This document shows, piece after piece, positions 1,703 through 56,213 of a stretch of DNA of 64,000 nucleotides. Under the pieces are notes generated by a model. The model had not been told where the DNA came from. It ran no database searches and worked only from the letters and a program-made list of their open reading frames with translations. The stretch comes from an uncultured Acidobacteriaceae bacterium (GTDB lineage: Bacteria > Acidobacteriota > Terriglobia > Terriglobales > Acidobacteriaceae). How positions within the stretch are numbered: position 1 is the first letter of the stretch; the number at the start of each line of letters is the position of its first letter. The stretch is from positions 46,482 through 110,481 of the forward strand of contig CAWCMW010000006.1 of NCBI GenBank assembly GCA_963796785.1, in the 5' to 3' direction. A program made the position numbers and the translations under genes.

Positions 1703-1762
1703 ACAGCATGGGCTCACGCAGGGGCGCGGCTCTGCCTGAACGCTGCGAGTGTGTCTCCCCGC

Positions 1763-3365: not shown

Positions 3366-3451
3366 GAGGATGGTCTCGCGGACAGAATACGTCATAAGGG
3401 AGCATCCGCGCCCGAGCGGCGGAGTGGAAGCCCTGGAGCACGGGAGCATTC

Positions 3452-4259
3452 ATGCGGGAGTTTCTGGTGCGAACGTCGCACAAACCGCGGCCCTTGCCGG
3501 CGGGGCGCTGGGCGATGACCCAGCGCTGGAACGATCTGCTGTTTGCGCACTGGCCCATCGCCACGGCCAAGATGCAGTCGCTGCTGCCGGATTGGCTTGA
3601 AGCCGATACGATCGAAGGCTCGGCGTGGGTAGGCGCGGTGCCGTTCTGGCTGGACCGCATTAAAGTTCGCGGCATGCCCGCCGATTCCGGGGCTGCGAAG
3701 CTTTCCTGATCTGAATTTGCGAACCTACGTGCGCGACCGGTTTACCGGAACGCCGGGGTTCTACTGCTTCAGCGTGGATTCAAGCAACCTGCTGGCAGTG
3801 GCGGCGGCACACCTGGTGTATCACCTGCCGTACCGGCTGGCGGAGATGTACCTTGAGCCGCGTTCGGAACGCGAGTTTGCGTTTTATAGCCGGCGGCGAT
3901 TTTCGCGGCAGCCAGTGATCTTCAAAGCCCGCTACCGGGGCCTGGGTCCGACTCGGCAGACGGCGGAGATGCGGCCGGGGTCGCTCGAGTACTTTTTTAC
4001 GGAACGGCCCTGCGTGTTCTCGACCAACCGTACGGGAGAGCCGATCAGGGCCAATCTGCATCACGTTTCGTGGCCTTTGGAAGAGGCTGAAGCGGAGATT
4101 GAGCGCAATGACCTCGCGACAGCGGTGGGCCTGAAGCTGCCCGACCGGGAACCGGTGCTGCACTATTCGCGCCGGCTGGCAGTCTATGTGTGGCCTGCGG
4201 AGCTGGCGCGTCCCGCACTGGCTGCGCGCCCGGTAACCGTCGCGGCAACGCCGACGTAG
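3452..4259 (+). CDS. DUF2071/YqjF family protein; frameshift near 3680-3710
   Basis: MTQRWNDLLFAHWP..AWVGAVPF, then LNLRTYVR..PGFYCFSVD..YHLPY..SLEYFFTER. Confidence 0.85.
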
Positions 4260-4484
4260 AGGCCACAACTGGCTTCTAGTCGTTAGCTCTCTGTGCGGCC
4301 CGCCGGCGGTGGCTTTCGGCTCTCTCCTTCTCCTCTCTCAGGCTTGTACTCGGCGGTGAGCTTTGTTTGAGCCGGGCATTGTTTGCTGCGATTTCACCGC
4401 ATGTAGTTTCCTTGCGCAGCAATCCTGCAAGCGAAAATCGGGCAGGCCACGGCGAGAGCGCCAAGGTTTGCAACAAACGGTCCG

Positions 4485-5273
4485 CTACTTTGTCAACAAT
4501 GTCGCGGCAAGCGCGCTGCAACTTGGTGTCGTTTGCGCCTGCACCCCATACTGAACAGTTTGTGCGGGCAGCGCGATCGTGCACCGAGCTTCCTGGGTGT
4601 TGCCGGTTCCGGGGTTGCCATTCGAGCAAAGTCCGGCCGGGAAACTGGATGTGTTCAGCGTAAACGGCTTGGGGCTGATCCAATATACGGTCTCGCCGCT
4701 TGATGCCGTGATCGTCGTCAAAGAGTTGCCGTTCGGATCGTTCAGCGCCGTGGCTCCATTCACGCAGGACACATAAGCGGTAATAGAGTTGGTGGCAGCA
4801 TGACCGGCGCTCGGTTGTGCCGGTGCGGGGCTCGCCACGGATGCGTGCTGGCTTCCGATGAGATGAGCGAAATCCTTCTCTACGGCTCGCCCGTAACTGA
4901 AGTTGTTAAGAGGACCTGTCGGAGATTGCTGGATTCCCGGATCAGGGCAGCTATACCCGTTGGGAGAGGAACAAGTGAAGAGATAGGGACCGGGCGACGC
5001 CTGGGGATCAATGGTGCAGGTCGATGAATCCCCGCCGGGCACGCAAGGGTTATAGCCTCCCACAAAACTCATCGCGAGCCCCGACCCATTGCCACCCGCC
5101 GGTGGCACCAGAGTGATCGTGTCTCCGCCATTCACCAGCAGATTGGCCATGGGGTAGTTCTGCACTTGATAGACGAAGTTCCGTCCTCCGGCCGGCGATG
5201 CCGACCAGTCCATCCATATCCCCATAAACACCCCGGCAACAAACACAAACAGAAGCAACAGCAAAGTTTTCAT
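4485..5273 (-). CDS. Hypothetical exported Cys-rich protein
   Basis: 262 aa ORF with hydrophobic N-terminus (MKTLLLLLFVFVAGV), 8 Cys, two beta-rich halves; upstream AAGGAAAGGA SD. Confidence 0.7.
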   Translation of the reverse strand: MKTLLLLLFVFVAGVFMGIWMDWSASPAGGRNFVYQVQNYPMANLLVNGGDTITLVPPAGGNGSGLAMSFVGGYNPCVPGGDSSTCTIDPQASPGPYLFTCSSPNGYSCPDPGIQQSPTGPLNNFSYGRAVEKDFAHLIGSQHASVASPAPAQPSAGHAATNSITAYVSCVNGATALNDPNGNSLTTITASSGETVYWISPKPFTLNTSSFPAGLCSNGNPGTGNTQEARCTIALPAQTVQYGVQAQTTPSCSALAATLLTK

Positions 5274-5309
5274 TCGAATGTCCTTTCCTTTCGCTGGATT
5301 GAGAAACGC

Positions 5310-8015: not shown

Positions 8016-8112
8016 CTCTCTCGAGCGAACCGGCCAGGCGCGAAAGTCCGGGAGGAGTGGCTCAAACGGAGTCGAAGTTGGACTTAGGTGAGGAAGCGAG
8101 CCGGCTACGCCG

Positions 8113-11100
8113 TCACGATGAGTGTACCCCGGAACCCGTGAATTGCAAGGTTCTTTTGCCAAACACCTGGCTCGGGTCAAGCGGCGGGCTAGAGCTTCGG
8201 CACCGGGTCAACGCGCCTCCCATCGAATCGCTCAAGACATCTTGAGTGGATTCCAAAAACCCCCTAGTGACGGGAGGCGGTTGGAAAGGGTTTCGATCCA
8301 TCCCCCACAATCACATCCGTGGTGCCCACGTTTCCATTGCGGATGTAGCCTACAGCGGCCTTCGTCCCCGGCTTCATCGCGAAAATCCGGCCGATCACTT
8401 CTTCAGTGTCCTTGACAGACGTACCGTCGATGGCCACGACGATATCGCCTTTAAGCAGTCCGGCCTTTTCCGCGGGACTGCCGGGAACAACCGTCGCCAC
8501 CAACGATCCCGGCCTGACCACGTGCATCTGTGCGCCGGTGCCACTGGTCACATCTTCCAGTTGCATCCCGATCACGCCATATGGTTTGATGACGCTCACT
8601 GACATCAAATCGGCGTCGCTTCCGCTCTTTTCCGGCGACCAGGTGGCTCCGCCATCGCTGGTATGCAGGATGATGCCTTTTCTGCCGACCACCCAGCCCG
8701 TTTGCGGAGACGTAAAGTTGATTTCAACCAGGTCTACCGCCGTGCCGCTGCTCTCTGTGGTCCACGTAGCGCCGGCATTCGTCGGTGTGGAGAATCACAC
8801 CGTCATATCCTGCCACCCAGCCGATTTCCGGCGTAACAAAACAAACTGACAACAGGTCGGCACGGGTTCCGCTGGACTGAACTTTCCAGGTGTTGCCGCC
8901 ATCGTCGGTATGCAGAATCGTGCCTCTTCTGCCCACTACCCAGCCCCAGGCCGGGGTGGCAAACGTCATCCCAATCAACGCTCGAATCGTGGGAGTCTTT
9001 TGCCGTTTCCAGGTGTTGCCGCCATCCGTTGTGTGGACGATGATGCCGTTTGACCCCGATGCCCAGCCCGACTGCCGGTTGATGAAGGTGACGAACGAAA
9101 GAAAGCTATCCTCTCCCGTTTTCTCCTGCTTCCAGGTCACTCCCGAGTCCTCGGTGTGCAGGATGATTCCGTCGTCTCCAGACGACCCAGCCAAAATACG
9201 GGTCAACGAACGTGACCTCGCTGAGGTCTTGGGTAGTGATGTCCTTCGCCTGCTGGTCCCACGATCCGCCGCCGTCGTTGGTGTGAAAGACGGCGCCGCC
9301 GCTGCCCACAACCCAGCCCGAAGACCGTGTGGGGAATGCGACCGAGTAGAAGGTTCCCTTGCTTGTGTTCTTCGAGACCCACGTAACGCCGCTGTCATCA
9401 GTCTCGAGCATTTTTGCTTCGGTGCCCACCGACCAGATCGTCCACGGCCCACCGGATTCAGTGCCTGCGCCCGCAACACCTGCCCCGGGGGGCGAATTCA
9501 ATGCGCTATGTTGACTCGATTCCGACAGGAGATGCGCCCAGAACGCCAGGGACACTCCAATCACGACGACGGTATACAGCGGCGGTCGTGATCGCCGGCC
9601 GGTATTTGTTTTCCGGTTGCGCCGGCCGGTCTTGGCCGAGCGCGGCGCGCGCATTCGAGAACCGCGCTGCGGATCAGCGCAATGGACACAAAGAGCAGCG
9701 CGACAAAGAAGAACGCAAAACTCATTGCGCCCCAGTCAGGCTTCTGAGATCAATGCCTGGCAGGAATCGCTGAAGCGATAACTGATCAAGGTCCCGGTGA
9801 GCCAACCCGGAGCATTGCCATGCCAGATGGTGGCGCAACTCCTCAGGCTGAGAAATCCCAATGGCGCGATGATCAGCCCAAGGCAGCCGCAGAATCCCTT
9901 CGTCAGCGCGAGCACGCCGGGACGCAGGTAACCCAGCCCCGGCGCCGGAGCGACTCCGCCACGGCTCCTGAACTTATGCGGCCACATCGCCCGCATTCCG
10001 AGGCGGACGATCAGATAACCAAAGAGAATGATGACGGCGTGCTCGCCGACCCACCAAAGCACTTCCAGCCATGGATGGTCGTGGACGATCAGCCACGCCG
10101 AATCAACGTCTCCCCCTATCCAGCTAAGCCACTTGGGGGTAGTGCCGTTGGTGATGATCGGAGTGCAGTATTTGACCAGGCCGAAGAGCCCCACCAGTCC
10201 CCAGACGATCATGATGCAGGCTCCGACGCCGAGCAGTATCCATCCGAGGATTCTGAATTTTAGCGGCTGAAGTGTGGGCAGGGCCTCCGCGGCTTCGCTG
10301 GGAGTGTGGCGGCGATAACGCCTGAGCCGACGCAGGCCCGACCGGAACCACGCCAGACCGCCCGCGCCCACGAACAGCGACAGAAACGCGAAAAGAGAAA
10401 GGCCGAATTGAGAGGCGGTCGTATTCGACGTGCCGAAAAAGACCGTGTACAGGCACAGCATGATGAACGCGGCCGCAGCGAGGCAGACGACGGACCCGGC
10501 CAGAACCGCGGCCCAGCTGACGACCATGGCCTGTACCCGCCGGCTGGCGAGCACCGGTTGCACCAGAGCGTCATGACTCAGTTCGTAGTAGGTGCTGTCC
10601 GATCTCCGGTCCGTACGCAGCAGGCGGCGGTCGACCAACTGGCTCAATGTTTCGCGGGGCAACTTCAGTTGGCGAAGCAGCTCGCGCTCCTCGACGCTGA
10701 GTCTTCGGCCTTCCGGGCTGATGAGATATTGCTCGCACAGAACCCGCACCGCGCCGCGCAGGTATCTCACCGGAAGCGACCGGATCGCATCCGTATAGAA
10801 ATTCTCAAGCGTCTCCGTCAGCGCGGCATCGCCTCCCAGATCCTTGAAGCTGACAACGATTTCCCCGCTCGAGAGCTTCTGTTTGAAGGCGGCGATGCTC
10901 TCAATGCGCTGGCAAATCAACTGCAGGTGGAAGGGCTCCACCTGGCGGCCACCTGAGCTGCGAGCTCCGGAAGCCGACTTGGTGAGATAGGCAAGAATCG
11001 AGGTCACCACGTCGGGCTCCAGGCGAAAAGCCCGCGTGGAGGCGTCGGCGGACTCGATTGCCGCAGGACCGGTGATGGCCTTCGATGCCATCTCGTACGT

Positions 11101-11748
11101 CAGCGGCGCCAGCCGATAGCGATGATCCAGGATCTCCGGTATGTGATCCGAAGCTTCTTCAAGCAGCCCCAGAAAATCTTCGCGCAGTGACAGCACCACG
11201 CGGATCGATGGTGGACCCTCGCTGACGGCGGACTCAATCGCCGGCTGCGACGGCGGAGCGATGCCGCGAATCAGATAGCCCAGCTCGGAAAGAAACCCCT
11301 CCCGCGCTTCCTGCGATTGCAGGGTGAACAATTCCTCGAATTGATCGAGAATCAGCACCGGCGTCAGGAGAAGGTCGTTGCGCCAGAATTCAACGGTCTT
11401 AAAGAAGCTCCAGAGAGAAGTTGTGTCGCCGGGAACGTATTCGATCTTCTGCCGCTCGGCTTCGGCCTTCACTCCTTCTAAAACAGAAACCAGCGGGCCG
11501 TTCTTGAGGTCGTTCACGCGCACGAAAAGCGGCAGGCTGTTGGCTTCGCGAAGGCGAGGCGCGACGCCGGCGTTGAGCAGAGAAGTCTTGCCCAGGCCGG
11601 ACTTGGCATAGACAATCACCAGACGATTGGCGAGGATCTGGTCAGTCAGCGCGACAGAGGCCGGCTCACGACCGAAAAATGTGCGGCGAGAAAATTCGTC
11701 GTCGCGAAACGGTTGAGCGCCGGGATAGCGGTGGAGCGTTTCCATCAT
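8113..11748 (-). CDS. nSTAND1-type NTPase with multiple TM helices, probably fused (via frameshifts) to a YCF48/BNR beta-propeller and a PDZ domain
   Basis: YPGAQPF..FFGRE, Walker A AKSGLGKTS, VLILDQFEE, SLREDF, YELSHDALV; hydrophobic helices continue in shifted frames past 9736; repeated GWVVG..GTILHT.DGG.TW; PDZ VVPGSPAEKAGLLKGDIVVAIDG. The fusion is inferred. Confidence 0.75.
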
Positions 11749-11753
11749 TCTCT

Positions 11754-13091
11754 CTATCGGTTTCGGCGCTGATACTCGCGCTTCAGGGTTGAAATGACCT
11801 TGGAGAAGTCTTCGTCGAAATCCGTTTCCCGCAACTCCATTTCATCGAATTTTCGGAGAGCGTCAACACGGTCTTCCTCAGACAGTACCGCCGTGCGAAC
11901 AGGAATCAGGAACGAGCCTCGCACGCGAAGTGCGCGCTCGCACGCCAGCGCCACTTCCTTGTTCACGTAGCTGTCGGTCTTCTGGCAGAAGGCCGGCGTG
12001 TAAAGCACCAGCACAAAGTCAGAGGCGTCCAGGTCATTCTCGATGCGCTTGTTCCAGTCATCTCCGCCTTGCAGGGACTCCTGATCGAGCCAAGGCTCAA
12101 AGTATGCCTTTTGCAGGGCGTCAAACACTCTCGAGGCCAGCGCCGCATCCTCTCGCGCATAGCTGATGAACACGCGGGGGCGAGGTCCCAGCGGCATCGC
12201 TTGCCCCACAAACCCGCCGTCGGCCTCCAGTCGTTGCGAAAGCTTGGTCAGAAAATCCCCAACGTCATCGTCTTCCAGTTCCACACGCGTGCCGCGCTGG
12301 TAAAACAGAATCATCTCGTCGCGATCCGATTGGATCAGGCCGTCAAGTGGCTCGGCCGCGATCGCCGGGCCGCTGCGATTGAGCTCCAGTGCGCGCAGCA
12401 AAATCTTGAGAAGAATGCGAAGGTCCCAGTGCTTGATTCCGAAACCGACGAACAGAAAACTCTGGCCAACTCGCTTGAGAACACGCAGCAGGCTATTGGG
12501 AAGTGGCGGCCGTTCAGAAACGACCCTGATCAAAAAGTCGAGAACGTCATTCTCGCTGAGCACGAGCGACGATGGCTCTTCGGCGCTGCCGAACAGATGG
12601 AATACCACGGGCGAAGCCGGAGTACCGGGCAACACAAACTCGGGATTCTCCCTTTTGTCGCCGCGCAAATGATAACGGTGCGAGATCGGCGTCTTACCCG
12701 CCGCCTTCAGCGCCTGCTCCAGCATGGCGTCCTGGCCGGTGGTCACAATGAGCGAAAACGGAAGCGCCGCCAACTGCTCGTGCACCGTGGAGGGACTGTA
12801 CTGGCGCGACGCCAGGACCATCTCCGCAGTGGCGCGGAGAGTGGTCGGCCCGAATCCTTCTGTGTCTTCGTATTGCTGGGCGAGTGCCGCCAGGGTATTC
12901 CCGCTGGGGGAACGGTCATCCTCTTCGAGCTCGTGGGCCAGGCGCAGCCGCAGTTCCTCAGCCAGCGTGTTGCCACTCTTCGATCCGTTCGTCGTAGAAG
13001 ACGACTTGACGGGAATCTCGGAGCCAAGCATGAGGACGCAGTTGCCATGCCGGAGAGAACCAACCAGGTTATTCCAGTGCCGCTCTTTCAC
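11754..13091 (-). CDS. SIR2-like (SIR2_2) plus TIR (TIR_2) fusion protein
   Basis: N-terminal CVLMLGSE, IVTTGQD, VFHLFGS, SLVLSENDVLDF, FLFVGFG; C-terminal VFISYAREDA, WLD, DFVLVLYT, SYVNKEV; GTG start with GGAGG SD. Confidence 0.85.
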   Translation of the reverse strand: MKERHWNNLVGSLRHGNCVLMLGSEIPVKSSSTTNGSKSGNTLAEELRLRLAHELEEDDRSPSGNTLAALAQQYEDTEGFGPTTLRATAEMVLASRQYSPSTVHEQLAALPFSLIVTTGQDAMLEQALKAAGKTPISHRYHLRGDKRENPEFVLPGTPASPVVFHLFGSAEEPSSLVLSENDVLDFLIRVVSERPPLPNSLLRVLKRVGQSFLFVGFGIKHWDLRILLKILLRALELNRSGPAIAAEPLDGLIQSDRDEMILFYQRGTRVELEDDDVGDFLTKLSQRLEADGGFVGQAMPLGPRPRVFISYAREDAALASRVFDALQKAYFEPWLDQESLQGGDDWNKRIENDLDASDFVLVLYTPAFCQKTDSYVNKEVALACERALRVRGSFLIPVRTAVLSEEDRVDALRKFDEMELRETDFDEDFSKVISTLKREYQRRNR

Positions 13092-33960: not shown

Positions 33961-35070
33961 TTAAGCGTCGCGCAAAAGCGGCTCAGGCTTGAACCCTCGC
34001 TGGATGGCCATAAGGCCCGCGCGCAGAAAGCCGAGCGTGTGCGCCATCCCCGCATGCCAGGGCGCTGAACAGGTCATCTGCGGGGCGTGGTCGGGAATCA
34101 CAACGCCGTCGAAGCCGTTCTTGTCGAGAAGATAGAGGATGCGCAGCATGTCAACTTCGCCGTCATCGATAAAGGTTTCGTGATAGTGCGGAGCCTTGCC
34201 GGCAATATTGCGAAAGTGAACATAGGCGATGCGATGCTGGCTGCTGTAACGATCGACGGTGTCGTAAATATCGCCTTCAGTCATCTCGGCCAGCGTGCCT
34301 AGGCAGAACTCAAGCATGTTTGACGGGCTCGGTGAAATATCGATCAGCCGTTGATACATGGCCTGCTGATAAACCAGCCGCGGCTGGTGGCGCATCGTCG
34401 GCGTGGGCGGATCGTCAGGATGCGCTGCGAGGCGGACACCGGCTTTTTCCGCAACCGGCAGCGCCTCCTCAAGGAACCGCTGGAGACGCCGCCACAACTC
34501 GTCGTGCGAAATGATCGGTAGCGTGCCCGGCGGCGCATTGGGGTCGACAATCATGTTCCAGACCTGGCCGTTGGGGATGGGCGTATCGACCAGGCCGTCC
34601 ATGCCAACGGATTCTGCTCCGCCGCGCGCAAAGGGTCCGCTGGTGCGGCCTGCGACACCTGCAATCGAGAAGTTGTAGCCGAATGTCGGAATGCCGGCCT
34701 CGCCCACGGCGCGCAGGATCGCGAACACATTCTGCATATGCTGCGCGCGCCGGGGCCCGTCGAGAAGAACGTCGTACCAGTGGGCGGGGTCGAAGTTTTC
34801 TATCGCCTCGAGTTTCAGCCCGGCACCCTCGACTTGCTTGCGAAGCGCGATCAGCTCTGCGGCCGTCCAAAGGCGATTGGGATCCCCGGCCACGCCCCAC
34901 GGCTGATCTTTGCCGCCGGTCGGCTGATTATTGGATGGATTCGCGCTCCCCTGCCGGAAGTAGTCGACCAGGTGGACGATCACATGGGTGCAACCAGCCT
35001 GCACGGCGAATGCATAATACTCGTCGTTCAGCATGTGCCGGTAAAGTCCCAGACCGAGCTTCATATTCAT
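33961..35070 (-). CDS. uxuA: Mannonate dehydratase
   Basis: AEKAGVRLAAHPDDPP, FCLGT, VHFRN, ETFIDDG, PDHAP. Confidence 0.9.
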   Translation of the reverse strand: MNMKLGLGLYRHMLNDEYYAFAVQAGCTHVIVHLVDYFRQGSANPSNNQPTGGKDQPWGVAGDPNRLWTAAELIALRKQVEGAGLKLEAIENFDPAHWYDVLLDGPRRAQHMQNVFAILRAVGEAGIPTFGYNFSIAGVAGRTSGPFARGGAESVGMDGLVDTPIPNGQVWNMIVDPNAPPGTLPIISHDELWRRLQRFLEEALPVAEKAGVRLAAHPDDPPTPTMRHQPRLVYQQAMYQRLIDISPSPSNMLEFCLGTLAEMTEGDIYDTVDRYSSQHRIAYVHFRNIAGKAPHYHETFIDDGEVDMLRILYLLDKNGFDGVVIPDHAPQMTCSAPWHAGMAHTLGFLRAGLMAIQRGFKPEPLLRDA

Positions 35071-35138
35071 CCTGAGCCAGTGTAGTTCAGGCCGCAAAAA
35101 GAGCGGCGAAAGGCCGGCGAAACTGGCGTTTCAAATAC

Positions 35139-35168
35139 TTGTCAAAAGATAAAAAGTTCGTGTATTGT
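35139..35168 (+). promoter_or_regulatory. Putative sigma70 promoter
   Basis: TTGTCA (35139-44) - 18 nt - TATTGT (35163-68) in an AT-rich patch. Confidence 0.5.
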
Positions 35169-35174
35169 CAAATA

Positions 35175-35361
35175 CCTGCCGCCGGCCTCCCTCGCCGGTG
35201 CGCCCAACCGGGCCTTCCCTGTTTGCAGGCCGGATGGGCACGAAGGCTGCGCGCCGAAGGTGCGTTGCCTGGTACTTGTTGCGGCGGCGCGCACCACGAG
35301 GGTCCAACATCAAGCCTGCCTCCCCCGTAGGCCACAGGACTCAATCGTGGAGGAGGCTTGT
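35175..35361 (+). promoter_or_regulatory. Structured 5' leader, candidate riboswitch-like element
   Basis: Multibranch fold closed by CCCTCG(35189-94)/CGAGGG(35297-302); hairpin CAAGCCT-g-CCTCC(35311-23)/GGAGG-AGGCTTG(35349-60) covers the SD of the downstream gene. Confidence 0.45.
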
Positions 35362-35907
35362 GTGATCGAAGTACAAGAGCAATTCCTGTCGCCTTCAACG
35401 GGGGTCAGGCGGCCCATTCATCTGGTAGGCGAGCAGCCCACGCTGCTGCGCAACAACCGCGTTTTGATCTTCCTCACCTTCTTGGGCAGCATTGCCGCGC
35501 TTGGCGTGTCGCTGTGTATGGTTGTCGTCGCGCTCATGTCCTTTCTCCCGTTCAGCGCGCTCAACCCTGATCGCTTTGCGGCCGGGGCGCTCTGGGCGCT
35601 CGGAGCGTGGCTCATGGCGATGTCGCAGGTCTATCTGTGGAGACAGGGAAACCTGATGGCCCAATGCTCGGTCCTGCTCGACAAGCGCGGAGCGTACTTC
35701 CGCCTCGCCAACACGAAGGGCGAGGTATTCATGCCTTGGAACCAGATTGAGGCTGTCCGCTACAAGCGGATCGAGAATGCACAGAAGTTCACGATCCTCG
35801 GTTCGGATACGAGCATTGTGACCTTCACGTCTTACAGCTTTTACCGGCCAAGGAGAGTGGCGCGACTGATCGCGGAACATGCCGGACTGCCGCTGGTGAG
35901 AGGATAA
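35362..35907 (+). CDS. Hypothetical membrane protein (2 TM plus possible PH-like domain)
   Basis: GTG start after GGAGG; two TM helices, then LDKRGAYFRL..FMPWNQIEAV. Confidence 0.7.
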   Translation: MIEVQEQFLSPSTGVRRPIHLVGEQPTLLRNNRVLIFLTFLGSIAALGVSLCMVVVALMSFLPFSALNPDRFAAGALWALGAWLMAMSQVYLWRQGNLMAQCSVLLDKRGAYFRLANTKGEVFMPWNQIEAVRYKRIENAQKFTILGSDTSIVTFTSYSFYRPRRVARLIAEHAGLPLVRG

Positions 35908-35979
35908 CGCGCAAGTTGCGCTCACATCATCTTGCAGCGCACAAGCGATCGCGTGCATCTGAAGCCAGCGCGAACTCCG

Positions 35980-36555
35980 TCATCGTTCGACGCGCGGATC
36001 AGCGAGTAGCGCGTTCACCTGGCTCTCGATCACCCGCACATCCGTTTCGCCCTGAAAGCGGGCGCGCACCACGCCGTTTCTATCGATGAGGAAAGTAAGC
36101 GGCAACCCGAGCACGCCGCCATAGCGCGCGGCGAGCCTTTCATCGCCCATGGCCACGGGGTAGTTCAACTTGAGCCGCTCCAAAACGCGGCGCGCGGGGG
36201 CAGCGCTGTCATCCATGGAGATGCCAATCACCTGGAATCCCTGCTGGGCGTGCTGCCGTTGCCATGTGGCAAAGACCGGCATTTCCACCAGGCACGGCGC
36301 ACACCACGTGGCCCAGAAGTTGAGCAGCACAACCTTGCCGCGAAAGGCAGCGAGGCGCAGCGGATGGCCGTCAAGGCCGTTGAGCGTGAAGCCAGGCGCT
36401 TTCTGGTTGATTAGATGGTCCGCCGCCAGGCCGGCGGGCGCCGACACCGCAAGAAACCCAGCGAAGAAACCGGCGATCAAAACGCGGCGCCAGGTGCGGC
36501 TCAGGTTGCAGCGCGCAGCACGCGGCCACGACGCCGGATTAACGGCCGCCTGCAA
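35980..36555 (-). CDS. TlpA family thiol-disulfide oxidoreductase
   Basis: GKVVLLNFWATWCAPC, GLPLTFLIDRNG. Confidence 0.9.
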   Translation of the reverse strand: MQAAVNPASWPRAARCNLSRTWRRVLIAGFFAGFLAVSAPAGLAADHLINQKAPGFTLNGLDGHPLRLAAFRGKVVLLNFWATWCAPCLVEMPVFATWQRQHAQQGFQVIGISMDDSAAPARRVLERLKLNYPVAMGDERLAARYGGVLGLPLTFLIDRNGVVRARFQGETDVRVIESQVNALLADPRVER

Positions 36556-37037
36556 CGGGAAACCCCTTGCTCACCCAATCGTCGCCGAAGTTCTGGGCCA
36601 GATAGAGGACCTTCACGCGCGTGAATCTCATCTCGTGCAGCAGGCTATACGCCGGGCCAACATTGGGGCAGCGATTCCACGGACAGCACCCGCAATAAAG
36701 GACGATGAAGGTCGTGCGCGGCAGTGAGGAGACGCGGCCGCGCAACAGCGCGATGCCTTCAGCCTGCGAGCCGGCTCCGGCATATTCCGCGCCGGGAATG
36801 TGGGCCTGGTCAAACATCATGCGCGAGCCCACCTGCAAAATGAGCGGCTTCTCCGCGCCGCTGCGCGCGAAGCAGCAGATTGAGTTCATCGGGCTGGATG
36901 AGCTGTGCCGCTGGAATGGTGGATGCGCTCGCAGGCTGCGGCTCTGCCCATTGTGCCGCCGCTCGAGCCGGCTGCAGCGCCAGACAAAACATCGCCGCGG
37001 CGGCAACGACCGCCGTTCTTATGAAACTCGATGACAT
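36539..37037 (-). CDS. Exported rhodanese-like domain protein; frameshift near 36880
   Basis: Signal peptide, AHIPGA, IVLYCGCCPW..CPN, DWVSKGFP. Confidence 0.8.
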
Positions 37038-37172
37038 AAAGGATTCTCTGTACCCAGTGTAGTCCCGAATGACACATTTCGACGGCGCCGCCGGGCGCGG
37101 GCAACTGTGAGTCCCCGAAAAAACTAGCCGCAAAATGCAAGCCACGCAGTGCGACCCGGAAAAAATGCCCCC

Positions 37173-37207
37173 AAATTGAAAACGCCAGAGACCGAAGCCT
37201 CTGGCGT
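37173..37207 (-). terminator. Intrinsic terminator
   Basis: Minus strand ACGCCAGAGGC-TTCG-GTCTCTGGCGT followed by TTTCAATTT. Confidence 0.75.
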
Positions 37208-38046
37208 CTCAATCTTGATGATCAGGTAGTACAACCGGCTGTCGCGTCCCTCGGCTACCCCAGCGGCGAACCTGCAGCTTTCGCTGCCGCTCCTTCCTCT
37301 GGCTGCGCTGGTGCGCTGCTTTCAGCTTGCGCCTACTCACCCGCTCTCCGGCTCGACCGAAGGCCGACTTCCCCGGCTCGGATCGGTGTTTTCTCGCCTG
37401 GCTCGACTGGTGGCAAGCACCCGGCTTTCACCGCATGCTACGCACTTCCTGCCGACTGGCTGCCAACCTCCCAACTTGCGTTGGTGTCCAACCTCCAGCT
37501 AGGCCTGCGATTACTCCCGACTCACATCTGGCGTCGTCCTTCAGCTCGGCTGGCTCGAACAACCTCCGGCTTTCGCCGTCTGCTGTTGCAGCTTCCAGCT
37601 TGCGCCTTCCGCTGCTGCAACCTGCAAGCTTGCGCCCGCCTGTCGCCCCCGTTTGCCAAACCGGTGGTGATCCTCCGACTCGCATCGGCTGTTTCACCCT
37701 CCGGCTTTACCGGTTTCGATCCGCCGGGCTTGCGCCTGGCGTCTCATACCTCCGGCTGGGCCTTTGATACGCCCCTAACTTCAACCGAACCTTGCATCGC
37801 CAGCTGAGCCGTCGATGAGTATTCCGTTTCCGCCGGTTCGCGTATCTTCCGGATCTGTCAGCTAAAACAACTTTCGGCTTGCGCCGACTTTTGCATCCTC
37901 TGACGCGGCCAGCGATCCCTCTTCGGCTTTCGCCTCAGGTTTCACCCTCTGGCTGGGTTAGCGGCGATTTTCCGATTCTCATCGGCTTTTCGTTCCACCA
38001 ACCGTTCCGGCAACCAACTCCCGATGCCCTACTAGGCTCATCAGTT
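37173..38046 (-). ncRNA. Candidate large structured ncRNA made of ~49-nt GNRA-capped hairpin modules
   Basis: No credible ORF; 13 GNRA tetraloop hairpins, all on the minus strand, mostly 46-51 nt apart; covarying basal stems; 5'/3' end pairing; flanking promoter and terminator. Confidence 0.75.
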
Positions 38047-38052
38047 GAAGTG

Positions 38053-38082
38053 ACAGTACGTCCGTTGAATCTGTGGATGCAA
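38053..38082 (-). promoter_or_regulatory. Putative sigma70 promoter of the ncRNA
   Basis: Minus strand TTGCAT (38082-77) - 18 nt - TACTGT (38058-53); predicted start near 38046. Confidence 0.55.
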
Positions 38083-39052
38083 GTGCAAAAGACAAGTAAA
38101 TTTGTGGATTTCACCAAGGTTGGTGCAGAGTGAAGACTTTCTGAATTTGCGCCGGTGTTATGGCTCACATTTGCACAGCAGCGACCGCGAAAACCGAGAG
38201 ATGGCCGGTGGATTTTTCTCCGGACGCGCGAGGAAATTGGCCGCGCAATCCGCATTTTTCGAGGGGTCCCCCCCACTGGGGGCCCCCCGCCCCTTTTGGC
38301 CAAATACGTCATGCGACAGGAGCTTGCGAGCTGGGTTCTCCTCTAAGTCTTTTGTTCTAAGGAATCATTTCTGCAAAGTCGTCCGTCGATTACAGTTGTC
38401 TGCGTTCTCGCAGACGGTGGATGGAGAGCGGCGAACCGCTGCGCTCCTCGAAACTCGAATTGCTCTCAGTATGCGCCGGAAGCCGGAAATAATCGGCAAA
38501 CTTGGCGGAAATATTTGGCGAGTGGATTCAGGGGGTTGCGAGGAAAATGTGCGAGGAGGGGCTTGACGTGGACCGTTTGATCGTTGTGATTGCTTTACCG
38601 GTGAAGCTTCGCTTGGGCCAAAGAGAGCGACTATATCGCAGGAGCGCGACGAAGAAGGATTTTTCCAGGGAACGGATGGGCCGCTTTCCAATGCACGAAA
38701 CAGGCCTCCTGAGCGCGCTCTTCTCCTCTGCTATAACTTAGATCACCGTCATCATGGAAGATTCATCTGTCAGGGAGATTGGGGCGTGCGTTCACGTTGC
38801 ATTCGGGTGAGCCCCAGCAATTCGGGTACTAAGAGGGCGCGACGCTCACGCAGTCCGGACTGACATTGGCATGGGTGCAAGCTGGCTAGGATTTGACAGC
38901 GATTTCCGTACGGCGGAAGAACGCAGCAGGAGGGACAATATGGAAGTAAAGAAGAATAAAGCGCGCTCGTCGCCGCGCCCCTCAAGAAGAATCTCCCGCC
39001 TGGTCCTGTTTACAAAGAGACCGGCGAGCCCTCGTGGCGAGCTTCGCTGGCT

Positions 39053-40843
39053 ATGAATGAATCGTCTGGTTTCATGAGAAAACCGACCTTGCGAGCGACG
39101 GCTCAGAACTATCTGCCTGCAGTCGGTTGCGCGCTGACGCCAATTCTCTGCTTCTTGGCGATTCGCCCGTTTGCTGAGATCGGGATTGTCGATGATTGGT
39201 CTTACATCAAGACAGTGCAGGTTCTCGCCCAGACCGGTCACATCGTCTATAACGGCTGGGCGACCGCAATTCTCGGTTGGCAACTCTACTTTGGAGCATT
39301 GTTTGTCAAGGTCTTCGGATTCTCCTTCACAGCGGTTCGCTACAGCACAGTCGCCGAAACCATGGCGACAGCATTTTTGCTGCAACGCACTTTCGTTCGG
39401 GCGGGCTTGAACTCCTGGAATGCAACGCTCGCTACCTTCGCCTTGATTCTTTCGCCGGTCTGCTTTCCCCTGGAATTCACCTTCATGACCGACATTTCTG
39501 GACTCCTGATCATTGTGGTCTGCCTTTACATGTGTCTGCGGGCTTTGGCTGCGGAAAGCGAACGCTCGGCCATAATCTGGATTGTCTCCGCCGGATTGTT
39601 GAATGCACTGGCGGGGACTGCTCGGCAGATCGCCTGGCTTGGAGTGCTGGTCATGGTTCCCTCCACGCTCTGGTTGTTGAGGCGAAACCGGCGAGTACTC
39701 GTTGCGGGCTGCGTGTCCTGCGTTGCTGGAGCGTGCATTGTCGTATCCGCGATGCACTGGTTTGCCGGGCAACCGTATTCCATTCCGGAACCTTCGGTTC
39801 GCGACGCGATTAACCTGACCTCGTTGGGAAAAGCCGCAATCGTTGGCCTGCACATTACCGGTCAATCTGCGGTTCTGGCACTGCCGATGCTGCTGGTATT
39901 CGCCGGGGCTCTCCGCTCTTGGAATCGTCGCATGGCCGCGGTCTATTTGACCGGGCTTTGCTGCTTCGCCTTCCCTGTGATTGCTGCGATCCTCGCCGGA
40001 AAGTTGAGCCCGAGGTTCGTTCTTTTTTATAACGACCACTGGATTATAAGCAGATTCCAAAACTTGAAAGCCATTTCGGCCTGGGGAATTCACCTCGGCG
40101 CTGGTTACAACATTCTTCGGCTGTTGATTCTTCTGGCGACGCTGCTGGGCGGTCTCAGTCTTATTGCTTGCTTGTTCGCGGGGGCGCATTACCGTCCCAC
40201 ACATCAACGAGCTGCAACCGCTATCACATGGCAGAGACTGGGAGTTATACTGGGCCCCTTTACAATCACTTACCTCGGTTTCCTGGGGCCCAGAGCATTG
40301 CGCGGCTGGTTCGACGATCGATACCTGGTGCCGCTGCTCGCAATTCTCCTTCTTGTGCTGGCCCGCTTTTACCAGGAACATGTGAGAGAAAATCTGCCAG
40401 CGGCGTGCGTCCTGTTGATCGCCATCTTTGGCGCATTCAGTCTTGCGGCGACGCACGATATGTTCGCTCACTATCGCGGGTATATATCAGCAATTGGCCA
40501 GCTTCGCTCAATTGGAACGCCGGATACTGCCATTCTTGGGCCGTGGGAATTCGAGGGGTGGACTGAAGTTGAGAAAGCGGGATACATTGACGACATCAGA
40601 CTTCGGGTTCCTAAAGGAGCCTGGACCCCTCCGCCGGTGCGTTCACTGCCGGCTAGCTGTCAGGGGTTAAACGTCCTCTTTCTGCGAGGAACCCCGGCAA
40701 TCAAGCCTGTTTACGCGATCGTTGACGATCCAACAGGGTGCGGCGGACAACCGGCTCTTCCCCCGGTCACATCTGGAACCTGGATTGCTCCACAGAGCGA
40801 TTCGATTTATACGGTTCGGCTGTCTGTCGCCTCTGGTGACTGA
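39053..40843 (+). CDS. GT-C-like membrane glycosyltransferase (ArnT/PMT-like)
   Basis: First loop DDWSY, FTFMTD, RQ, DRYLVP; about 13 TM helices plus soluble C-terminus. Confidence 0.7.
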   Translation: MNESSGFMRKPTLRATAQNYLPAVGCALTPILCFLAIRPFAEIGIVDDWSYIKTVQVLAQTGHIVYNGWATAILGWQLYFGALFVKVFGFSFTAVRYSTVAETMATAFLLQRTFVRAGLNSWNATLATFALILSPVCFPLEFTFMTDISGLLIIVVCLYMCLRALAAESERSAIIWIVSAGLLNALAGTARQIAWLGVLVMVPSTLWLLRRNRRVLVAGCVSCVAGACIVVSAMHWFAGQPYSIPEPSVRDAINLTSLGKAAIVGLHITGQSAVLALPMLLVFAGALRSWNRRMAAVYLTGLCCFAFPVIAAILAGKLSPRFVLFYNDHWIISRFQNLKAISAWGIHLGAGYNILRLLILLATLLGGLSLIACLFAGAHYRPTHQRAATAITWQRLGVILGPFTITYLGFLGPRALRGWFDDRYLVPLLAILLLVLARFYQEHVRENLPAACVLLIAIFGAFSLAATHDMFAHYRGYISAIGQLRSIGTPDTAILGPWEFEGWTEVEKAGYIDDIRLRVPKGAWTPPPVRSLPASCQGLNVLFLRGTPAIKPVYAIVDDPTGCGGQPALPPVTSGTWIAPQSDSIYTVRLSVASGD

Positions 40844-41058
40844 AAAGCCCATCGAAACGGCGAGGCTCTGAATCCGCTTGGCGGCATCAGGACGTGCCCG
40901 GCCACCACGGATTGATGGCGAACTCGCATGGCCTCAAGTTCTGTGTCGAAGACGCTATAACCTCCTGAGCGCGCCAGGAGCGGGAGACGATGGTAGCAAC
41001 TGAAGGTGATGAAGTGGAAAGCGCCGGAGTGATGGAACCGAACGAGTCCGCGAGGCAT
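40807..41058 (-). pseudogene. Truncated REP-associated tyrosine transposase (RAYT, Y1 family)
   Basis: MPRGLVRFHHSGAFHFITFSCYHRLPLL..VVAGHVLMP; similarity ends just before the HUH motif. Confidence 0.75.
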
Positions 41059-41129: not shown

Positions 41130-41174
41130 TGCCCTATCCTTTCCGCAGTCTCACCGCGGAAAGGGTGGGAGACC
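41130..41174. repeat. REP-like palindrome next to the RAYT remnant
   Basis: TGCCCTATCCTTTCCGC-agtctcacc-GCGGAAAGGGTGGGA hairpin. Confidence 0.6.
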
Positions 41175-44192: not shown

Positions 44193-44510
44193 TTATTCGG
44201 GCGTTGCGGGTTCCGGGGCCTCGAACAATTGCGGCAGGTCGCGGCCGCCGTAGACGACACGCTCGATGCGGACTGTTCTGGCGATAACGCGGAAGAGCAC
44301 AACATAACGGCCCACAACTGCGAGGCGCGCCCCTTCCCCAATTTCGGGACGAAGCTGATAGAGAAGCGGCTGCTTCCCGATCCTGACAATCGCATGCCAA
44401 ATCTCGTGGATGAACGAAACAGCCCGCTGGGGATTGTCTTCGGCGATGAAATCGGCGATGGCTTCAAGATCGCCTTCGACAAAGCGGGAGAGTTCTAGAA
44501 CCGGTCTCAT
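44193..44510 (-). CDS. ParE/RelE family toxin
   Basis: DLEAIADFIAEDNPQRA, RPEIGEGAR, YVVLFR, IERVVYGGRDL. Confidence 0.9.
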   Translation of the reverse strand: MRPVLELSRFVEGDLEAIADFIAEDNPQRAVSFIHEIWHAIVRIGKQPLLYQLRPEIGEGARLAVVGRYVVLFRVIARTVRIERVVYGGRDLPQLFEAPEPATPE

Positions 44511-44607
44511 AAGCCATCTTTTTCAATTTGCCGAAATCGTGGGACCCGCCTTGTGGTTGGGTCCCATTCGTGCCCGTGATGCACCAGCTGCACTTATGAG
44601 ACCGGTT
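44499..44607. mobile_element. 109-bp MITE-like element inserted in the toxin 5' end
   Basis: Perfect 15-bp inverted repeats AACCGGTCTCATAAG (44499-513) / CTTATGAGACCGGTT (44593-607), flanked by CTAG and GTAG. Confidence 0.7.
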
Positions 44608-44619
44608 GTAGGCGCATCC

Positions 44620-44904
44620 CTACGGCTTTCCCTCGGTATCCGCGATGGCCTGGTACTTGCGCTCAAGCCGTTCGAAGACGCCTTGGGGCGGGACACCCGG
44701 CGATGGGTCCTGCAAAGCTTGTTGCCACACCCTGCGCAACTCTTTGAGACCTTTCTTCCGTAGCGCGCGCTGGCGGCTCCATTCGCGCAGGGCCTCGCGC
44801 ACCACCTCGCTTGAAGAGGAGTATTCTCCAGCCTCAACTGCGGCGCGAACCGTGGAAACCATCTCCGGCGGAAGAGCAATGCTGACTTTTTCTACGGTTG
44901 GCAT
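44620..44904 (-). CDS. ParD-like ribbon-helix-helix antitoxin
   Basis: EKVSIALPPEM..AVEAGEYSSSSEVVREALREW. Confidence 0.9.
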   Translation of the reverse strand: MPTVEKVSIALPPEMVSTVRAAVEAGEYSSSSEVVREALREWSRQRALRKKGLKELRRVWQQALQDPSPGVPPQGVFERLERKYQAIADTEGKP

Positions 44905-45227
44905 TGGCGCACCATGGTAGGAACAATTCCTACCAAACGATAACATGGGTTTAGGGATTTTGGCGACACGCCCGGACGACGCCTCGATTCTCAATCGGCT
45001 GTTGGCCGATCCTCTGCTTTCCGTGTCAAGCCCCCGCCACGGCCCTTCCCGATCCACCCCAACCGCCAACTCGTTGGCCCTCCTTCACTTAGTCACCGCT
45101 TCACGCCCTCACTTTTTCTTCTCAAGTTTGCCGATCATTTCTGCCAAATCTCTATACTTGTCTTAGGTGGATGCGAGCCGCAGGCTCGTAAATCTCGTCT
45201 CCACTTGAGAGAAAAATAATTAAATAA

Positions 45228-45948
45228 GGGGCTATCCTAGATAAACTAGCGAAGTATGTTGTTTAACCCATAGATTGAATTGTAGTAGTTGAATGTAGGG
45301 GTTTGGGTTATTGAATCGCCATTCGCATTCCTTGAGAAACAGAGAGAAACTGCTGTCTGGGAATGCCATTAAAACGACGGAAATGGCGCTTGGCCTGGTT
45401 CCAGAAATTCTCGATACCGTTGATGTGATTCTTGCAATCGGCAAACAGTTTCGCATGGTTGATCCTGTAGTGCTTGAAGGCCGAAACATCCAGAACATTG
45501 TAGGAGGAGAAGGTGTCGGAATAGACGATCGAGTCGGGCACGATTTTCTCCTCCATGATGGCTTGCAAGGTAGAGCTTTTGATGTCGCTGATCATCCTGG
45601 CATAGACCTTGCCGCCTCGCTTTAACAGGCCGAAAACAGGTACCTTCCCAGCTGCTCCACGGCCGCGTAGTCCTTTACGCCGGCCACCAAAGTAACTCTC
45701 ATCCACTTCCACTTCTCCAGAGAACGGAGTGGCATCCTCGCTGGCCTGGTGGATGAGCTGCCGCAGGCGACAAAAATAATACGTCGCAGTCGTCTTGTTG
45801 ACGCCCACCAAACGGCAGCCGTGCGGGCTGTCGTACCGGCAACAAAGTGTTAGATCAGCCGTTACTGTTGGCTCCAAAGCAGACGGCTCTTGTGCATCTT
45901 CGCCATATTAGAAACCTTAGCTCTTCGCTACTTATCTAGGATAGCTCA
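45228..45948 (-). mobile_element. IS1595-family (IS1016-group) insertion sequence with degraded transposase
   Basis: IRs GGGGCTATCCTAGATAAACTAGCGAAG / TGAGCTATCCTAGATAAGTAGCGAAG; flanks TTAAATAA / TTAAAAAA; EVEVDESYFGG..RGRGAAGK, IVYSD, HINGIENFW; stop codons near the N-terminus. Confidence 0.92.
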
Positions 45949-46216: not shown

Positions 46217-47406
46217 CTACGCCGGCACAACACCCTTTGCCAGCATCGCCTTGATCCCCCGCAACGCCTGCCTCGTCCGCTCTTCGTTCTCAATGAGGGC
46301 GAAGCGGACGTGGTTGTCGCCGTAGTCGCCGAACCCGATGCCAGGCGACACCGCCGTCTTGGCTTCCGTCAGCAGCAGCTTTGAGAACTCGAGCGACTTG
46401 AGGTCGCGGTAGGCCTCGGGAATCTCGGCCCACACGAACATCGTCGCGCTGCGGCTTGGCAACTTGCCAGCCGGCCTTGTTGAGGCCGTCGACGAGGACG
46501 TCGCGGCGGCGGCGGTAGTTGTCGCAGATCTGCGCGACGCACTCCTGCGGCCCCTCCAGTGCGGCAATAGCCGCGACCTGGATGGGCGTGAAGGTGCCGT
46601 AGTCAAAGTAGCTCTTGAGCCGCGCAAGCGCGCCGACCAGCTTCTTGTTGCCGACCATGAAGCCGATGCGCCAGCCGGGCATGTTGTAGCTCTTCGACAG
46701 AGTGAAGAACTCGACGGCCACGTCCTTAGCGCCCGGAACCTGAAGCACGCTGGGCGGCTTGTAGCCGTCGAAGGCGATGTCGGCGTAGGCCAGGTCCTGG
46801 ATGAGCCAGAAGCCGTGCTCGCGGGCGAGCGCGACGAGCCGCTCAAGGAAAGGCAGCTCGACACATTCCGTCGTCGGGTTCGACGGGAAGTTGACGATCA
46901 GCGCCTTGGGCCGCGGCGTCATGCGCGGGAATGATCTCTTCAAGCTGCGCCAGGAAGCTCTCCTGGTTGTGAACGGGGACGCTGACGATGTGCGCGCCGG
47001 CGATGACCGGGCCGTAAATGTGGATCGGGTAGCTGGGGTTGGGAACGAGCACGGTGTCGCGCGAGTCGAGAATGGCGAGACAGAGGTGGGCGATGCCCTC
47101 TTTGGAGCCGATGGTGACGATGGCCTCGGTGTCGGGATCGAGATCGACGTCGTAGCGCGACTTGTACCAGTTGCAGACGGCCTTGCGCAGGCGGGGAATG
47201 CCGCGGGAGACGGAATAGCGGTGGGTGGGCGGCTTGCGGACGGCCTCAACGAGCTTATCGACGATATGGGCGGGCGTGGCGCCGTCGGGGTTGCCCATAC
47301 CGAAGTCGATGATGTCTTCGCCGCGGCGGCGGGCGGCCATCTTCATTTCGCCGGTGATGTTGAAGACGTAAGCGGGAAGGCGCTGAATGCGGGAAAACTC
47401 GTCCAT
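46217..47406 (-). CDS. alaC: PLP-dependent aminotransferase (alanine transaminase AlaC-like); two frameshifts
   Basis: [51 protein letters not shown]. Confidence 0.85.
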
Positions 47407-56136: not shown

Positions 56137-56213
56137 CGGGACGTGGCTCAGCCTGGTAGAGCACTCGCTTGGGGTGCGAGGGGTCGGCAGTTCGAATCTG
56201 CCCGTCCCGACCA
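56137..56213 (+). tRNA. tRNA-Pro (GGG)
   Basis: CGGGACG acceptor stem, D-loop AGCCTGGTA, anticodon arm CTCGC-TTGGGGT-GCGAG, TTCGAAT T-loop, CCA end. Confidence 0.95.

Follow-up and report, generated by a model that had tools for sequence, protein, structure and literature searches.

Large structured noncoding RNAs are rare in bacteria, and their origins are largely obscure. GNRA loops contact helical receptors through A-minor docking, CsrB acts on CsrA as a multisite sponge, and type III toxin-antitoxin systems contain tandem RNA repeats followed by a terminator. The natural RNAs ROOL and GOLLD are described as assembling via A-minor and kissing contacts (PMC12286853) and as RNA-only cages tied to tRNA loci, with ROOL reported to be abundant and, in one strain, nonessential (PMC12286853, PMC5737381).

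Here we describe an RNA gene in a 64,000-nucleotide stretch of DNA (the window) from an uncultured Acidobacteriaceae bacterium. It belongs to a real family of large noncoding RNAs with a traceable, unusual origin, for which a scaffold mechanism is predicted. No description of the family was found in Rfam 15 or in the literature searched, a search that did not extend to most subscription papers; within these bounds, a large repeat-built family of noncoding RNAs is apparently undescribed.

Borders, strand, and transcription signals

Minus-strand positions 38046 to 37179 are a stand-alone noncoding RNA gene with a promoter-like site and a terminator (Table 1), present as a single copy in the source genome. 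From 38050 to 37170, the minus strand folds with z = −6.8 and the plus strand with z = −1.8 (20 shuffles per strand), in keeping with the original prediction of a structured RNA read from the minus strand. We assign the minus strand because structure points there: G-U cells outnumber A-C cells on this strand in an alignment of 50 orthologues (1277 versus 104), and each RNA has on average 13.0 GNRA hairpins on the sense strand and 0.3 on the antisense strand. The locus is noncoding, 49 of the 50 orthologues being out of frame and the variable columns per codon position (158/165/163) following no codon pattern. Purines make up 62.5% of the RNA.

Against Rfam 15, whose families include ROOL, GOLLD, OLE, Acido-1, Acido-Lenti-1, and CsrB, nothing in the window reached the gathering score except a tRNA-Pro, and the best E value within 37100 to 38300 was 0.73. 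There was also no match inside any long member among 26 loci scanned. Identity with 6S RNA, SRP RNA, RNase P RNA, or tmRNA was rejected, each being located elsewhere in genome G000 (the 6S match just below the cutoff). The RNase P RNA of that genome (G000:C7:1122869-1123400) is 532 nt long compared with a 367-position model and thus has long insertions. A hammerhead was likewise rejected: although the 5′ end contains CUGAUGA, the candidate for the GAAA core is not conserved (GAGA, GAAG, GAGG), and Rfam gives no match.

The strong promoter match is the only one in the genome (score of 68; next best, 3.4). A strict consensus promoter scan did not call the −10 hexamer TACTGT, and a simple promoter/terminator scan picked up neither the promoter nor the terminator of the gene. 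The two CCACA boxes at 38072 to 38109 are three helical turns apart and are kept across very divergent members; we assume that they may resemble DnaA boxes. About 1 kb of the window at 38100 to 39050 is without a convincing gene and has a G/C-run hairpin near 38290 to 38260. The genome has 10 copies of a short motif, AAAT(G/C)ACTT, like those adjoining several relatives.

Environmental sequence data agree with the predicted ends. The stretch is present in 20 of the 24 runs listed, and RNA runs of wetland, peat, or soil origin make up 15 of these 20. Four RNA runs aligned to 34000 to 41000 contributed 473 to 11,993 contigs each; the bins covering the RNA have a summed contig depth of 4,000 to 3 million, and no other bin exceeds 4.2. 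In three further RNA runs, cover ends in bins 37173-37213 and 37993-38074, which contain the predicted RNA ends, while a DNA run used for comparison has ~8-fold cover continuing on both sides. Since the RNA-run data are contigs, they hint at borders and not at strand or level, and missing cover over the flanking genes was not taken as a basis for ranking genes. In seven RNA runs from wetland, peat, and soil, family sequences account for 0.05 to 1.05% of all the contig records, a share of records and not an expression level; the family is unannotated despite this share.

Table 1. Features of the RNA gene and its surroundings in the window
Feature	Positions	Strand	Basis
Whole noncoding RNA gene, ~870 nt including terminator	37179..38046	(-)	Folding z = −6.8; RNA-run contig borders; no reading-frame signal
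AUCCACA-type box, distal, 31 nt before second copy; possible regulator site	38103..38109	(-)	CACA unchanged in 34/34 aligned promoters
−35-like hexamer TTGCAT (38082-38077), overlapping second CCACA box	38072..38082	(-)	CTTG and CACA in 104/104 promoters, a set selected on these letters themselves
−10-like hexamer TACTGT, 18-nt spacer	38053..38058	(-)	T 91%, A 100%, last T 97%, middle variable (104 promoters)
Ring-closing helix, 5′ half; like reverse complement of tRNA 3′ end (CCA, acceptor strand, T stem, T loop)	38007..38046	(-)	Pairs with 37255-37216
Spoke 1, GAGA loop	37957..38002	(-)	Alignment pairing and register test
Spoke 2, GAAA loop	37908..37953	(-)	Alignment pairing and register test
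Spoke 3, GCAA loop, strongest covariation	37857..37904	(-)	37884:37877 top pair; basal double changes compensatory 4/4
Branched domain (earlier spokes 4 and 5): GAUACG/CGUAUC, CGAACC/GGUUCG, hairpin CAUCG..UCA..CGAUG (37817-37795)	37760..37853	(-)	37843:37769 covaries
Spoke 6, GCAA loop	37709..37756	(-)	Alignment pairing
Spoke 7, GCGA loop	37660..37705	(-)	Alignment pairing
Spoke 8, sub-junction of three short GNRA spokes, each ~30 nt	37551..37658	(-)	Basal-strand and alignment pairing
Spoke 9, GUGA loop	37503..37545	(-)	Alignment pairing
Spoke 10, GCAA loop	37455..37499	(-)	37481:37474 and 37482:37473 covary
Spoke 11, GAAA loop	37406..37452	(-)	Alignment pairing
Spoke 12, GNRA loop absent, apical sequence nearly invariant	37356..37402	(-)	Alignment
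Spoke 13, GCAA loop	37307..37352	(-)	Alignment pairing
Spoke 14, GAAA loop	37259..37303	(-)	Alignment pairing
Ring-closing helix, 3′ half; like reverse complement of tRNA 5′ end (D loop, D stem, U8-A9, acceptor strand)	37216..37255	(-)	3′-end profile
Intrinsic-terminator-like hairpin (C-UUCG-G loop) and U run	37179..37207	(-)	Seen in sequence; kept across size classes and minis
ORF without Pfam match, downstream in most class members	36539-37006	(-)	
AhpC/TSA redoxin gene, downstream in most class members	35980-36555	(-)	
tRNA-Pro(GGG)	56137-56213	(+)	

A wheel of GNRA-capped spokes

The fold was assessed on an alignment of 50 distinct members of the window's class, which are 77 to 99.9% identical. 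Over these orthologues, the 196 pairs of a hand-set structure (in which column 37912 is counted in two helices) are 97.1% paired and show 66 compensatory events, compared with 4.2 ± 2.1 when partners are re-dealt and 2 to 7 when they are slid. The basal stems contribute 11 events on the tree versus 0.8 ± 1.0 in the control. Between cognate basal strands, 50 of 70 pairs are Watson-Crick, compared with 35.9 ± 3.3 when partners are permuted, a result favored by the hand-chosen cuts. When all columns were compared with all others under a tree-based null, 37884:37877, 37481:37474, and 37843:37769 exceeded every value of 25 null alignments, and all three are canonical in the hand-set model. Paralogous apical stems covary as well, in segments that had been selected for having hairpins. 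Thirteen GNRA loops stay GNRA in all 50 orthologues (650/650) while using seven sequences, and in the family the interval from one GNRA loop to the next is 48 to 51 nt in 922 of 1585 cases, with a peak at 49.

An alternative register, with hairpins formed across the linkers, has 4 compensatory events in 55 pairs, all at the UCA junction, compared with 11 in 65 for the spokes, and was rejected everywhere but at that junction. The wheel of spokes thus holds, spokes 4 and 5 excepted. Selection on a repeated structural module, as proposed in the original prediction, is borne out by the covariation among orthologues, by the better performance of the spoke register, and by the constancy of the GNRA loops. 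The basal stems that it had listed are all found in place (GUUGG 38002-37998/CUAAC 37961-57, GCCAG 37953-49/CUGGC 37912-08, GUCAG 37904-00/CUGAC 37861-57, GCCGG/CCGGU at 37756/37709 and again at 37705/37660, GCUGG/CCAGU at 37499/37455, and GCCAG/CUGGG at 37303/37259). Of the 12 linkers between adjacent simple spokes, 11 have the 3-nt length that it described and 10 end in A (in order CCA, CGC, AGA, UCA, CCA, AAA, CUA, CG, CGA, CGA, GCA, GUA), and the triplet following the basal strand, described there as purine rich, is all purine in 10 of 13 cases.

The two segments at 37853-37808 and 37804-37760 are not independent spokes, their supposed 5-bp basal stems being 58 to 59% paired with no compensatory event. 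Read as one branched domain, 37760 to 37853 is 99.3% paired with 5 compensatory events, and the pattern of its central hairpin occurs in 81 of the 132 complete long members described below. The relative L009 is without most of the spoke 8 stretch. The tip of spoke 12 (37364-37386) is, besides the branched domain, the most conserved internal sequence of the class; no partner was found for it, and a kiss between it and the UCA loop was rejected, as no covariation was visible on inspection by eye. The ring-closing helix (38046-38007/37255-37216) is paired in 97.6% of cells and has zero compensatory events in the 50 orthologues because it is too conserved. A pseudoknot of the 5′ loop with the 3′ end was considered and is better read as this single co-linear helix.

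Distribution of relatives

A pattern combining the promoter with the 5′ end retrieved 113 loci from GTDB genomes, 70 of them with an extra promoter motif. Acidobacterial labels are carried by 68 of these 70; L052, labelled Verrucomicrobiae, coincides with genome G219 of the window's family, and L070, labelled "Ca. Aquilonibacter" of another phylum, may be misbinned. A metagenome scan yielded 120 of ~200 stretches, and metagenomes contain hundreds of further members. With the corresponding promoter/5′-end model, matches were obtained in 119 of 150 genomes from the window's genus, in 14 of 41 from genus g117, and, in a family-wide sample, in 3 of 150, all in these two genera; nothing real was found outside the family in 150 genomes of the phylum. 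Arrays detected with a two-spoke model are confined to the same two genera and were not seen in four genomes negative by the promoter/5′-end model, two of them closed. The closed genomes G696 and G648 have no match by either model. Single weak matches to a module model in 7 other genomes were discarded, being without the 46- to 52-nt hairpin spacing, and two weak matches to the promoter model (L260 and L261) are unrelated. In 40 stretches around weaker matches, each of the 43 loci examined has the promoter followed by a related 5′ end; the family terminator was recognized by reading in 35 of 45 rows.

Complete long relatives in Acidobacteriaceae number 132, with lengths of 284 to 1155 nt, in a set that is redundant and includes at least one miscut member (L318). 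A BLAST-type search with the whole RNA in 150 genomes of the family gave 3 weak matches, of which L003 is real, by virtue of its terminator, and the other two are due to chance. Two short members of ~285 nt each are located 3.4 kb apart at L294 (G486:C103). Adjacent modules are at least 80% identical in 14 of 129 relatives, and within the window RNA modules share 53% identity on average and 67% at most. The original argument against a recent tandem duplication therefore stands for this RNA, with the amendment that an older tandem duplication likely gave rise to the modules.

No neighbor gene is common to all size classes. The ORF directly downstream in the window (Table 1) may be rhodanese-like. 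In the window, an aminotransferase gene precedes the long RNA by ~8 kb in the same orientation, and a homologue directly precedes two of the short members that we call minis (see below). At 46217 to 47406 (minus strand), this gene is split over overlapping frames, while the copy in L495 is a single 403-amino-acid ORF, and frameshifts or assembly errors are both conceivable. Between the aminotransferase gene and the RNA, positions 44193 to 45877 encode a ParE toxin, a ribbon-helix-helix partner, and an IS1595-family transposase; in G263, a mini is found right behind the same ParE/ribbon-helix-helix pair. Acido-Lenti-1 elements (L263:1325-1372 and L296:1066-1110) are located <0.6 kb from two minis, and a 40-nt stretch of L495 near one of them matches window positions 41130 to 41170.

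Viral contigs contain no true member among the loci checked (14; 0; 123 of ~170; and 1), and a phage origin was accordingly not found in these searches. The viral-contig loci L400, L407, and L422 have GNRA-rich inserts within phage genes, which are unrelated to the family and which we take to resemble self-splicing introns.

Probable descent from a tRNA read backwards

Six mini members have the family promoter and terminator flanking only ~80 nt. On the strand opposite the promoter, all six score as tRNAs in Rfam (44.8 to 61.4 bits), and four of the five compared are 71 to 76% like tRNA-Arg(UCU/UCG), while L337, which has an internal duplication, is 61% like it. Traits of a functional tRNA, namely a stable anticodon, U55 in the T loop, and CCA, are not consistently kept on the plus strand of the minis: the anticodons are drifting (GCU or CGC), 4 of the 5 minis compared have C in place of U55, and CCA is absent in 2 of 5. 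Gene callers misannotate the minis as Ser, Ala, or Thr tRNAs. Four genomes (G263, G490, G512, and G580) have a mini and a second, separate promoter-model match, and G761 has two minis. Arg-like pseudo-tRNAs without the family promoter and terminator (L338, L340, and L342; anticodons CGU, ACU, and ACU) form a possible outgroup.

The ends of the long RNAs very probably descend from the reverse complement of a tRNA (mirror tRNA). Profiles of these ends, built from 61 long members with minis and tRNAs left out, score higher on the mirror than on the sense strand for 40 of the 41 tRNAs of the source genome, with three tRNA-Arg species ranking first. The 3′-end profile matches 30 mirror and 0 sense tRNAs (69 each), while the 5′-end profile by itself is weak (5 mirror versus 4 sense). 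Pairwise alignment gives a weak signal: mini ends are above shuffles in only 14 and 21 of 142 RNAs, and for the ends of the window RNA mirror tRNAs have no advantage in score over sense tRNAs.

Judging from sequence comparison, the repeat unit also probably descends from the mirror-tRNA core, with less assurance than for the ends. The stretch from T loop to D loop in a mini is 47 to 49 nt, the same length as the repeat, and in L307 a series of 11 consecutive, in-register copies of the mini core tiles the RNA, starting from the first mirror T loop. In the window RNA, the best match of the mini core is at 37828 to 37780, inside the branched domain, and this hairpin region would be the best-preserved copy of the mirror-tRNA core. 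Over 250 loops, mini-core matches peak at the predicted offset of +3 from the GNRA loops (9.0 versus 0.3 for shuffled cores). The tRNA-strand core scores equally (116 peaks versus 110 for the mirror, with 12.5 at offset +1); the unit being nearly palindromic, the two are not told apart. With a generic module profile the signal is weak, the mirror being preferred for only 14 of 29 tRNAs. Tandem copying of the mirror tRNA long ago is the likely source of the spokes, given that the ends resemble a mirror tRNA and that the repeat has the length and register of its core.

The course of events may be pictured as follows. A pseudo-tRNA would first have become transcribed in reverse, framed by a dedicated promoter and terminator, and its T-loop-to-D-loop stretch (47 to 49 nt) would have been duplicated up to ~23 times. 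Pairing between adjacent copies would then join the mirror D loop of one to the mirror T loop of the following one, across their border and under a GNRA cap, and the 3-nt linker ending in A may be a relic of the mirror anticodon loop.

Possible functions

Tentatively, and with the balance tipped slightly toward doubt, we read the long RNA as a predicted self-packing GNRA scaffold, whose function would reside in a shape that recurs many times. GNRA loops and purine bulges would dock in CC:GG-rich stems of other spokes or other molecules, giving a solenoid like that of repeat proteins or a cage, with its size set by the number of units. Strict GNRA loops with free choice of sequence, constant spoke length, purine bulges, and CC:GG-type strands fit such A-minor docking, and CCGG/CUGG strands number 3067 in the family versus 1212 expected (2.5-fold). 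The several-fold variation in repeat number between lineages fits poorly with one fixed cage. The RNA gene is accessory and not essential in every genome of the carrier genera.

Helical CC:GG-type receptors for the GNRA loops gain from the enrichment of such strands and lose from a search for covariation of the third GNRA base with CC:GG or CU:AG pairs, which found none beyond the loop's own stem, at low power and with unaligned offsets. The original suggestion of kinks or receptors in the purine bulges is not supported as regards k-turns and 11-nt GNRA receptors, both being at or below chance when counted by their consensus: k-turn-like patterns number 7 versus 5.0 in shuffles, and 11-nt receptor halves number 0 in the window RNA and are depleted in the family. 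In class L307 (570 nt), GCAA/GAAA-type hairpins are wholly absent. GNRA may be retained for stability alone.

More doubtful, though possible, is the complete picture of an RNA counterpart to solenoid repeats: a backwards tRNA that would have been amplified to 0.3 to 1.2 kb, self-assembles by GNRA docking, and is a major nonribosomal RNA of peat and wetland Acidobacteria, with the ancestor (the minis), non-GNRA intermediates, and derived forms surviving.

The main rival reading, unlikely in our estimate, is a multivalent sponge, in which every spoke is the site for one copy of an unknown RNA-binding protein (not CsrA) and spoke number acts as the dose. Like units in variable number, a dedicated and strongly conserved promoter, abundant matching contigs in RNA runs, and conserved C-G pairs 3 to 4 bp from the loop followed by R-A-R would all suit a sponge. 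However, a sponge does not require the tight 49-nt period, and a candidate partner is hard to name: CsrA was found neither in a carrier genome that is 88% complete nor in any of five carrier genomes that are 97 to 100% complete, ANGGA is depleted in the family (627 versus 942 expected) and occurs 5 times in the window RNA, the size classes share no neighbor gene, and Ro60, present in 1 of 5 carriers and 1 of 5 noncarriers, is not codistributed.

That the RNA acts as an antisense or decoy for tRNA-Arg, its fragments, or tRNA-cutting enzymes, with spokes merely stabilizing it, is improbable for the long forms, which have diverged from the tRNA, whose selection falls on the spokes, and whose ends, in the window, show no mirror preference by pairwise alignment. 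An anti-tRNA role is more plausible for the minis: they are largely complementary to tRNA-Arg along their entire length, and two are directly downstream of an aminotransferase gene, one of these right after a ParE-type toxin pair. A pseudo-tRNA within a longer regulatory RNA is described for Bacillus cereus (PMC3399842).

A stable by-product or purine store, meaning a strongly transcribed relic kept just as double-stranded, degradation-resistant RNA, would account for the patchy presence (the closed genomes without a match by either model), the freely changing unit number, and the purine content, but strict GNRA retention, the tight period, a near-constant length within classes, invariant stretches, and the conserved promoter make it distinctly improbable. 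A function of the plus strand as a tRNA-like RNA containing a large insert, of the DNA as an attachment-site relic, or of an encoded protein is highly improbable: the minis are formally tRNAs on the plus strand, upstream genes vary as in an integration hot spot, and several chance ORFs cross the region, but it is the minus strand that shows the excess of G-U over A-C and the GNRA loops, the promoter and U run point the same way, and the orthologues are out of frame with no codon pattern.

The family would offer a natural, repeat-built RNA of tunable size, useful for studies of GNRA docking and for RNA design. It appears to retain its whole history, from the backwards tRNA to forms with 23 hairpins, and the birth of a large RNA therefore becomes testable.

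Comparison with known RNAs

The window RNA may act in the manner of ROOL and GOLLD or of CsrB, but by the traits examined it is a member of neither group. Like CsrB and RsmZ, the window RNA is a stand-alone RNA with many like hairpins and a terminator; it differs from them in having GNRA and not GGA loops, in the depletion of ANGGA, and in that CsrA was not found in the 6 carrier genomes searched. Tandem RNA repeats are also the basis of its likeness to type III toxin-antitoxin RNAs and to STAXI (PMC2864571). Compared with both, it has no pseudoknot repeats and is predicted to be a single unprocessed ring; no constant toxin gene is present 3′ of the terminator, where the genes vary by class.

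Like ROOL and GOLLD, the RNA is a large stand-alone bacterial noncoding RNA. Those RNAs often occur in phages or prophages and beside tRNA islands. The window RNA differs in having a tandem unit of ~49 nt in variable number and no pseudoknotted, ornate core, in that no member was found in the viral contigs searched, and in a tie to tRNA that is one of opposite-strand descent and not of neighborhood. Acido-1 and Acido-Lenti-1 are likewise orphan structured RNAs of Acidobacteria; they are two-hairpin motifs of 46 to 70 nt, and they have no match inside the window RNA (PMC2864571).

A pseudo-tRNA root is shared with two described kinds of RNA, from which the family differs in using the opposite strand. 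The bacterial Y RNA YrlA (RF02553) is a tRNA-derived noncoding RNA in which a T-arm-like part stands ahead of a D-arm-like part, as here, but it keeps the sense tRNA sequence and adjoins Ro60. The Ro60 gene of the source genome is on another contig with a YrlA-like neighbor of its own; at this locus (L334, G000:C3:182628-185900), the YrlA-like RNA, which at 29.8 bits falls short of the gathering score, and a tRNA-like element that is truncated precede the Ro60/TROVE gene. The tRNA-Other of B. cereus is a pseudo-tRNA at a variable genomic site that was recruited to a longer RNA, as appears to be the case here; unlike tRNA-Other, the present family appears to transcribe the reverse complement of the tRNA and to have amplified its core (PMC3399842).
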